Shown here one piece after another: positions 29,592 through 30,020 of a stretch of DNA of 64,000 nt; the first letter of the stretch is position 1, and the number at the start of each line of letters is the position of its first letter. The stretch lies in the NCBI GenBank assembly GCA_963741205.1, contig CAVUHW010000020.1:160001-224000 (forward strand), written 5' to 3'. The DNA comes from Nitrospirota bacterium. GTDB taxonomy: Bacteria > Nitrospirota > UBA9217. The notes under the pieces were generated by a model, which saw nothing but the letters and a program-made list of their open reading frames with translations, searched no databases and was not told where the DNA came from. Position numbers and translations under genes: made by a program.

Positions 29592-29939
29592 CTATTTCAG
29601 CGTCTGCTCCTGACTACCGGGATCCACAAGCGGGAATCCGGATTTTTTCCAACCCTCCACTCCCCCGCCGAGGACCTTGACGTTACGAAACCCTTTTTCC
29701 AGGTATTCTGCTGCCCGACGGGCAGCACTCGCCTCCTTTGGTCAGCCTCAATAGAAAATGATTTCCTGCTCCCTGGACAGGGACGGGGCCCTGTTCTTAA
29801 ACTCGGCATACGAGGTGCCGCCTTCAAGATGCATTCTCTCGAACTTCTCCTCGTCGTCATAAGCGCAGACGAAAATGGCGGCGCCGGACAGGACCCTTTT
29901 TCTCGCTTCTTCCGGAGGGATTCTTTCAGGTTCGATCAT
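29592..29939 (-). CDS. Rhodanese-like selenoprotein with two in-frame UGA codons (UxU), 115 aa
   Basis: IIFY-TGA-G-TGA-PKEASAARRAAEYLEKGFRNVKVLGGGVEGWKKSGFP is in frame to a TAG. Complete rhodanese signature; GGAGGA RBS. Confidence 0.88.
29709..29727 (-). promoter_or_regulatory. Bacterial SECIS-like hairpin
   Basis: UGCUGCCC-GUC-GGGCAGCA; loop starts with GU, 22 nt after the second UGA and 28 nt after the first. Confidence 0.75.
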
Positions 29940-30020
29940 AGTTTATCTCCTCCATGCTTGTCAGAACTCCATAACACCAGTATAACACAGGAGCCCTCGC
30001 CGCTGCTATCGAGTCGCCTG

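Follow-up and report, generated by a model that had tools for sequence, protein, structure and literature searches.

Two in-frame UGA codons and one predicted selenocysteine insertion sequence in a single-domain rhodanese gene of a Nitrospirota bacterium

We analysed a 64,000-nucleotide (nt) stretch of a Nitrospirota genome (GenBank assembly GCA_963741205.1, contig CAVUHW010000020.1, positions 160,001 to 224,000 of the forward strand; hereafter the window), in which a minus-strand gene at 29592..29939 encodes a small single-domain rhodanese with two UGA codons, one codon apart, in its active-site loop. The gene probably (at about 60%, by our estimate) specifies a selenoprotein of a rhodanese family with the motif Cys-x-selenocysteine (CxU; selenocysteine is abbreviated Sec, or U within motifs), in which the Cys at codon 64 has given way to UGA to yield U-G-U, and both UGAs would be decoded as Sec by means of a single selenocysteine insertion sequence (SECIS).

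The frame runs from an ATG at 29939-29937 to a TAG at 29594-29592, so that, with TGA read through, it comprises 115 codons without a frameshift, the coordinates of the gene including the TAG. Open reading frame (ORF) calling with translation table 11 yielded only a 63-amino-acid ORF at 29748..29939. Around the two UGAs the frame reads EQEIIFY-TGA-GGC-TGA-CCA-AAG, and the product would accordingly carry FY-U-G-U-PKEAS. The first of them, UGA1 (codon 64, 29748..29750), falls where rhodaneses canonically have their active-site Cys, as judged from alignment to solved rhodaneses and to orthologues, and the second, UGA2 (codon 66, 29742..29744), is the invariant Sec position of the family, as judged from the orthologues and from loci found world-wide. 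The sequence itself also shows a Shine-Dalgarno-like GGAGGAG 7 nt 5' of the ATG (29947..29953, minus strand). An earlier note on this DNA, made from its letters alone, had described the same uninterrupted 115-residue frame ending in TAG, the same two TGAs and a rhodanese-like product; direct reading of the minus strand bore out the frame and placed both TGAs at codons 64 and 66, and the rhodanese identity was upheld by a Pfam match above threshold and by the rhodanese fold of the predicted model.

Indeed, the 115-residue product matched PF00581 with 33.8 bits (Pfam gathering threshold 22.2, E 4.8e-8), and an AlphaFold2 model built with 26 orthologues as input reached a mean predicted local distance difference test (pLDDT) score of 88.3 and a predicted template modelling (pTM) score of 0.81. 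In this model a strand (residues 59-63) leads into a six-residue loop (64-69, U-G-U-P-K-E), which is followed by a helix (70-81). A Foldseek search returned GlpE (1gmx) and BH2092 (3nhv) among the closest solved single-domain rhodaneses, with a template modelling (TM) score of 0.73; 81 PDB chains matched at E<=0.001, and among the matches listed all were rhodaneses or rhodanese-containing proteins. In a sequence alignment, codon 64 was matched to the Cys after the beta-strand of 6mxv, 3nhv and 3ipo, which we take to be the catalytic residue of these proteins, and codon 66 thus lies two residues into the active-site loop. The window protein therefore shares with GlpE, YgaP and BH2092 both the fold and the order of its elements, a strand, a six-residue loop and a helix, and its residue 64 stands at their active-site Cys; in contrast, these enzymes have one Cys and no Sec, whereas the window protein has a predicted Sec two residues into the loop. 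A further difference from the GlpE-type rhodaneses is Cys25 within the VCAY strand, which is invariant among the aligned orthologues and replaces the acidic residue usual in the second strand. The role of the protein is presumably one of sulfur or selenium transfer, or of redox chemistry, of the rhodanese type.

We then compared the gene with its relatives. A six-frame search that read through stops recovered one orthologue each in 18 of the 64 genomes of the family (E<=1e-20) and in 27 of the 401 genomes sampled across the phylum (E<=1e-15). The motif FY[CU][AGVK]U is present in 27/27 orthologues, with TGA at codon 66 in every case, while codon 64 is TGA in 12 and a Cys codon in 15 of the 27. 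The UxU genes belong to genomes G000, G076, G003, G064, G067, G068, G010, G050, G055, G257, G349 and G239. The numbering of the motif by codon 64 holds in 26/27; the exception, G024, has an interrupted N-terminus, and it was counted for the motif and placed on the tree, but omitted from alignment A2 and from the codon-position comparison. On the best protein tree, which was built with the motif columns removed, the Cys or TGA state of codon 64 changes seven times, at least three of these changes falling on well-supported (starred) branches, and sister pairs that differ at this codon include G239/G347 and G010/G001. Repeated switching of this kind is what a functional Cys/Sec pair should show. 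A second, degenerate copy in G002 (L071, G002:C2:330099-330311) was omitted from all counts; it lacks the N-terminus, reads FY-TGA-P-TAA and is likely a pseudogene.

The pattern was the same over a wider range. A pattern scan of one genome per bacterial or archaeal species gave 241 relatives, the best 80 of which comprised 69 CxU, 11 UxU and no CxC sequences, with TGA at codon 66 in 80/80. These 80 loci share species representatives with the 27 phylum orthologues and so overlap them; they amount to 78 distinct sequences, and the two sets are not independent. By their record titles they come from Nitrospirota, many Desulfobacterota (titles also say Thermodesulfobacteriota or 'delta proteobacterium'), Brocadiaceae, one Actinomycetota metagenome-assembled genome and the Olavius Delta 1 and Delta 4 symbionts, and UxU was found beyond Nitrospirota too (L130, L171 and L181). 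The supposition of the earlier note that related rhodaneses have YCxC was thus not sustained, as the second position is TGA in all 27 orthologues and in the best 80 of the 241 loci, and no Cys-only version of the clade was found in either set. Alignment of the homologues did reveal the alternation of Cys and Sec codons that the note had looked for, at codon 64 and not at codon 66, together with conserved coding downstream. In 26 codon-aligned genes, pairs of sequences differed on average by 0.298, 0.242 and 0.592 per site at codon positions 1, 2 and 3 on the 5' side of UGA1, and by 0.211, 0.229 and 0.534 on the 3' side of UGA2. Selection on coding thus persists 3' of the UGAs, with the same signature on both sides. 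Nine residues 3' of codon 66 are invariant, including A73, A76, G83, L90, G92, G93 and W97, and the window protein is 72-75% identical to intact orthologues.

A hairpin that could serve as the SECIS was found immediately within this downstream coding region, at 29709..29727 on the minus strand, in the codons for S-A-A-R-R-A-A. Its sequence is UGCUGCCC-GUC-GGGCAGCA, with arms at 29727-29720 and 29716-29709 and the loop GUC at 29719-29717, and it forms 8 base pairs (bp) in 19 nt with a folding energy of -13.8 kcal/mol alone. The start of the loop is separated by 28 nt from UGA1 and by 22 nt from UGA2, which confirmed the distances of '22 and 28', as well as the 8-bp stem and the GU-initiated loop, given in the earlier note. 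RNAalifold predicted the identical helix from 27 gap-free aligned genes, in which 85.2% of cells were paired in the named structure, compared with 22.7-61.1% when the partner was slid, and compensatory pairs were seen at columns 36-54 (CG 13, UA 7) and 39-51 (UA 16, CG 6). The loop G (29719 in the window) is invariant in 27/27 orthologues. In the wide set of 78 distinct sequences, 85.3% of the cells were paired, 61 sequences had at least 6 of 7 pairs, and the loop began with G in 78/78, followed by U in 73/78. The hairpin columns are identical in CxU and UxU genes, the loops of the relatives are 3 or 5 nt long, and no second SECIS-like element was found in the aligned genes.

These features agree with what has been described for bacterial SECIS elements (published work is cited here and below from the text of the papers, and further UxU rhodaneses and selC* carriers may appear in their figures and supplements). 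The published bacterial SECIS (bSECIS) model calls for 3-9 nt in the loop, 4-16 bp in the stem, 16-37 nt from UGA to loop, a minimum free energy (MFE) of at most -7.5 kcal/mol and a G within the first two positions of the loop, usually with G or U after it (PMC13188914). With its loop of 3 nt that begins with G, its stem of 8 bp, its distances of 22 and 28 nt and its energy of -13.8 kcal/mol, the hairpin fits this model for both UGAs, in line with the SECIS predicted earlier. Furthermore, Itoh et al. 2015 put the conserved G some 20 nt from the UGA, on its 3' side, and describe a hinge between the winged-helix domains of SelB that accommodates varied spacing between UGA and SECIS (PMC4605307). 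The hairpin is therefore a well-supported candidate for a SECIS common to both UGAs, with predicted binding of SelB. As a separate observation, the hairpins of UxU and CxU genes (11 and 67 sequences) differ in median stem length (7 vs 5 bp) and median MFE (-14.8 vs -11.7 kcal/mol), a difference that is confounded by phylogeny.

We also searched the source genome (4.27 Mb, 50 contigs, 84% complete) for the machinery of Sec insertion, on which a double-Sec reading depends. SelB is encoded by one gene, which scored 371.6 bits against a cut-off of 242.25 and was the sole one of 11 GTPase matches above it. The selD gene (C14:97717-98643, 352.4 bits) has one in-frame TGA within it, and its product would be a Sec-type (or selC*-readable) selenophosphate synthetase. 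Two tRNAs, both with a UCA anticodon, scored above the Rfam cut-off for tRNA-Sec; one of them, on contig C45, is a canonical tRNA-Sec with a GGGAG... acceptor stem, the UCA anticodon and G73 (G before CCA). In addition, selA adjoins selB and matched with 531.1 bits. The machinery is thus present as selB, selD and a canonical tRNA-Sec, and selA is present too, but frameshifted in the assembly.

Several points weigh against the reading of both UGAs as Sec from one hairpin. As a single sequence, the 66-nt stretch folded with a z of -1.36, and 19/200 shuffles folded equally well; the significance of the hairpin comes from its conservation across relatives and not from this fold. The covariation score was reached by 2/500 shuffles, in a control that ignores the relatedness of the genes, and the conservation of the helix may partly reflect that of the SAA[GR]RAA peptide, although compensatory changes at synonymous sites argue for selection on the RNA itself. 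The pairing of Cys and TGA among homologues, which marks Sec codons, was seen at codon 64 (12 TGA, 15 Cys) and not at codon 66, and it speaks for codon 64 only, because codon 66 has no Cys counterpart in any orthologue or wide-scan locus. Among the sequencing runs listed with the gene, none is on record as being of RNA type, run X9 having merely been guessed to be RNA. Nor is there a conserved neighbour to give functional context: when ORFs within 3 kb were clustered in the 80 loci, the commonest family was found in 9/80, and no operon emerged. The split selA gene would be consistent with a true loss of Sec synthesis. Finally, the second tRNA resembles selC*, and with such a tRNA in the genome the sequence looks the same for 'two Sec' and for 'Cys and Sec'. 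The UxU double-Sec protein with one SECIS that the earlier note had proposed was upheld as to the read-through rhodanese, the machinery, the downstream conservation and the conserved hairpin, while at the UGAs the sequence would fit Cys as well as Sec.

This second Sec-like tRNA (C30:27060-27152; L002 1498-1592, minus strand) is 95 nt long and scored 57.8 bits on RF01852. ARAGORN assigned it the anticodon tca (UCA), and it has U73 before CCA, a 4-bp T stem and an 8-bp acceptor stem, GACUGGCU/AGCCAGUC. It thus has the traits by which selC*/tRNA-ReC is recognized, namely at least 80 nt, a Sec-like structure, a UCA or GCA anticodon and discriminator U (PMC13582414; Mukai et al. 2017, PMC5389517). 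Such tRNAs can place Cys at SECIS-dependent UGAs (PMC5389517, PMC13582414), and the selC* tRNA-Cys class is known from Nitrospirae and Thermodesulfovibrio, among others (PMC5389517). The C30 tRNA is like the tRNAs of that class in its length of more than 90 nt, its Sec-like form, U73 and UCA; it differs from the published selC* genes in occurring without selB* or cysS* and in adjoining yedF. Neither selB* nor cysS* was found in the genome, which has one selB and one cysS, and the C30 tRNA would therefore use the standard factors.

If this tRNA were charged with Cys and delivered by SelB, some or most copies of the protein would have Cys at residue 64, and possibly at residue 66; the UxU gene would then be functionally CxU (or CxC), and to write Cys as TGA at codon 64 would be nearly neutral. 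We regard this as a real possibility, though an unlikely one. It is favoured by the score of the tRNA above the Rfam cut-off and its agreement with the published traits, by its G1:C72 pair, which needs no special CysRS* (PMC5389517), and by the free toggling of codon 64 between Cys and TGA. The tRNA of UCA/U73 type was moreover found in 6/11 UxU vs 2/12 CxU genomes (Fisher p 0.089), and a tendency of the same kind appears for UXXU genes in a hydrogenase paper of 2026 (PMC13582414). However, this association was not significant, the related genomes are not independent and provide only 3 independent pairs, and with any U73 Sec-like tRNA counted the figures were 7/11 UxU vs 5/12 CxU genomes (Fisher p 0.41); the tables hold those of the 27 orthologue-bearing genomes with any tRNA hit, and G076, G004, G309 and G389, with no tRNA hit, were left out. 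At least four UxU genomes, G257 (a single contig), G050, G055 and G349, gave no selC*-like tRNA, their next-best matches being ordinary tRNA-Leu and tRNA-Ser, and tRNA-Sec is thus the sole known decoder of UGA1 there. There is also no known means by which two tRNAs could discriminate UGA1 from UGA2, and none of the 27 orthologues and 80 loci has a Cys codon at position 66, which argues that Sec is required, and delivered, at this position. Furthermore, U73 together with a long variable arm is compatible with seryl-tRNA synthetase (SerRS) as well (Mukai et al., PMC5389517), so that charging of the C30 tRNA with Cys is itself a prediction. We infer Sec, rather than Cys, at both sites.

Some further observations concern these tRNAs. 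The yedF gene beside the C30 tRNA scored 180.3 bits on TIGR03527 (cut-off 110), and a UCA/U73 tRNA stands beside yedF in 6/8 loci with flanks (G000, G064, G067, G041, G003 and G024), as compared with 0/4 GCA-type loci and 0/3 canonical tRNA-Sec loci examined. The GCA type is a third class, made up of long Sec-like tRNAs with a GCA anticodon and U73 (selC* tRNA-Cys), which scored 51-60 bits on the tRNA-Sec model; its carriers are G010 (L089), G347 (L094), G353 (L097), G239 (L098) and G195 (L103). In G064, G067 and G010 (98%, 86% and 96% complete), a UxU gene and a UCA/U73 tRNA were found, and no canonical tRNA-Sec with G73 at E<=1e-8. This gap may be due to incompleteness, or the U73 tRNA may be able to act as tRNA-Sec.

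The state of selA leads to a different objection, namely that the strain no longer makes Sec, and that the UGAs are read as Cys by the selC*-like tRNA or terminate translation to give the 63-residue fragment, the gene being a decaying or Cys-rescued relic. Indeed, the selA match (C26:85156-86524; L017 about 2619-2640) is divided over two frames, covering residues 1-369 and 374-454, with the shift near residues about 370-380 (or about 372-380) and the upstream frame remaining open into selB, and all of the 5/5 congeners keep an intact selA in one frame. However, a second gene for EF-Tu (tuf, at C13 about 93061-94369), which is 88-94% identical to the first copy, is likewise split between frames, near residue 104, making an assembly indel the likelier cause of the selA split. 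The selD gene retains its own in-frame TGA, the rhodanese gene is free of other defects at its 72-75% identity to intact orthologues, and a 94%-alike relative from another study has both TGAs. The selA split is thus likely to be an assembly indel, and we consider loss of Sec synthesis very improbable.

Both TGAs also withstood a check against sequencing data. A 181-nt contig from run X1, which may be the source sample of the assembly, spans 29596-29776 with 0 differences and has both TGAs, and a 94%-alike contig from run X9, of another study, spans 29680-29938 with 15 differences, none of them at 29742-29750. TGA is the commonest ordinary stop of the genome (1006/1912 ORFs of at least 300 amino acids, overlapping frames unfiltered), it ends 16/44 long ORFs of the window, and it is the own stop codon of the orthologous gene in 8/27 relatives; its use as the commonest stop and as the terminal stop of the orthologues excludes a general reassignment. 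There is hence next to no chance that one TGA is a sequencing error or that TGA is reassigned throughout the organism: indel errors do occur in the assembly, and two database relatives read W-A-W from translation with TGA as Trp, but both TGAs were seen again in independent contigs, 12/27 orthologues have TGA at codon 64, 22/45 database fragments end directly 5' of this codon, and TGA is the commonest stop.

Under the favoured reading, with both UGAs decoded as Sec from one hairpin, residue 66 would be an obligatory Sec inside the six-residue active-site loop, and at residue 64, the canonical catalytic Cys position, UGA would here have replaced a Cys codon. SelB with Sec-tRNA(Sec) would bind the hairpin and decode UGA1 with the loop 28 nt ahead. 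The ribosome would then advance by 6 nt, and at UGA2 the loop would be 22 nt ahead; as the stem is still 14 nt ahead of the A site at this point, it is presumably still folded, and a second SelB ternary complex could reload on the same hairpin to decode UGA2. In the protein, Sec66 would act as nucleophile, with residue 64 as the resolving partner; the two would form a selenenylsulfide in the CxU forms and conceivably a diselenide in the UxU forms, and Cys25 is a possible third redox partner. One may speculate further that, with one hairpin supporting two SelB deliveries 6 nt apart and with the yedF-linked selC*-like tRNA at hand, the active site is switchable, from a U-x-U diselenide when selenium is rich to a C-x-U selenenylsulfide when it is poor. 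We think this quite unlikely; if true, it would mean a selenium-responsive chemistry that is set by competition between tRNAs and not by gene regulation.

The closest published counterpart is a rhodanese-related selenoprotein that has gained a second Sec to give a UxU motif (Zhang and Gladyshev 2007, NAR 35:4952; PMC1976440), for whose family 0 Cys homologues were listed (PMC1976440). It is like the window protein in its rhodanese family, its UxU motif and its lack of Cys homologues. Set against the relevant passages of that paper, the UxU frequency of 12/27, its multiple origins, a SECIS common to both UGAs and a selC*-like tRNA belong to the present data only. The orthologues of the window protein in the Olavius Delta 1 and Delta 4 symbionts are CxU proteins of 55% and 51% identity, respectively, and no UxU copy was found in these two genomes, each having one CxU copy at E<=1e-6. 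The 2007 UxU sequence and the window protein, compared by family description, are likely to belong to the same clade. CxU rhodaneses have also been named 'COG0607 form 2' (PMC9312934) and 'form 3, NF041203, 1 Sec' (PMC13188914), and the relevant passages of these two papers make no mention of UxU. Indeed, the best NCBIfam match of the window protein was NF041203 (rhodanese_LYCAU), with 52.5 bits against a cut-off of 115 over residues 45-104 only, and eight other clade members scored 48.9-69.9 bits, all below 115. Although alike in the Y-C-x-U motif and in the C-terminal half, the clade of about 105 residues with the pattern 'VCAY...FY[CU]xU' is thus a sister group that NF041203 misses, consisting of relatives of that family and not of its members.

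Two neighbouring UGAs served by one element have likewise been described in other protein families. For the UXXU Group 4 [NiFeSe] hydrogenases, decoding from a single SECIS was proposed in 2026, the SECIS core being the same in CXXU and UXXU genes, and the genomes with UXXU are enriched in tRNA-ReC/selC*, so that either UGA may be read as Cys (PMC13582414). They share with the window gene the two close UGAs, the unchanged SECIS and the co-occurrence with selC*, and they differ in that the Cys or Sec residues are metal ligands and that the UGAs are 9 nt apart, as against 6 nt in the window gene. The association with the tRNA is significant for these hydrogenases and not for the window clade. 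SelL is similar in having two nearby Sec residues with one SECIS, and differs by its thioredoxin fold. Bacterial SelL likewise uses one SECIS. In vertebrate SelL genes, one SECIS in the 3' untranslated region serves two close Sec codons (PMC3316567), and a UxxU diselenide is named in the title of Shchedrina et al. 2007, as cited there (PMC3316567).

The UxU form of rhodanese and the idea of a single SECIS are thus both already in print, and the window gene is a well-supported further example. This weakens the claim of high novelty: a UxU rhodanese has been on record since 2007 (PMC1976440), and decoding of two UGAs from one SECIS has been proposed or stated elsewhere (PMC13582414, PMC3316567). 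An experiment on one bacterial SECIS serving two neighbouring UGAs was not found in the accessible literature, where such use has been inferred from sequence since 2007 and was proposed anew in 2026. With a 6-nt step between its UGAs and a hairpin that is compact and conserved, this protein of about 105 residues would be a convenient test case, which also offers natural CxU/UxU sister pairs and genomes with and without the competing Cys-type tRNA.

In public annotation the family is almost invisible as a selenoprotein. A search of a public protein collection matched 45 clusters at E<=1e-10, 22 of which end just 5' of codon 64 and 20 just 5' of codon 66; two NCBI entries are full length and read W-A-W, and one entry reads C-A-L (P0002, P0003 and P0014). 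The W-A-W entries come from records translated with TGA as Trp. As the clade escapes the NCBIfam selenoprotein model, public sets hold it almost only as stumps of 63 or 65 residues, a gap that is worth closing. The C-A-L entry stands apart, with Leu where all others have TGA and a different C-terminus.

In the window, the neighbours of the rhodanese gene are an Nramp transporter gene and a 388-amino-acid ORF, the latter without an NCBIfam match. One of the orthologues, in G239 (L066 1501-2190), encodes 230 residues in all, with a YHS-like domain joined in frame to the C-terminus of a UAU-type rhodanese. This domain scored 27.7 bits on PF04945, slightly below the cut-off of 30.3, and YHS-domain proteins appear as a selenoprotein family in the 2007 survey (PMC1976440).

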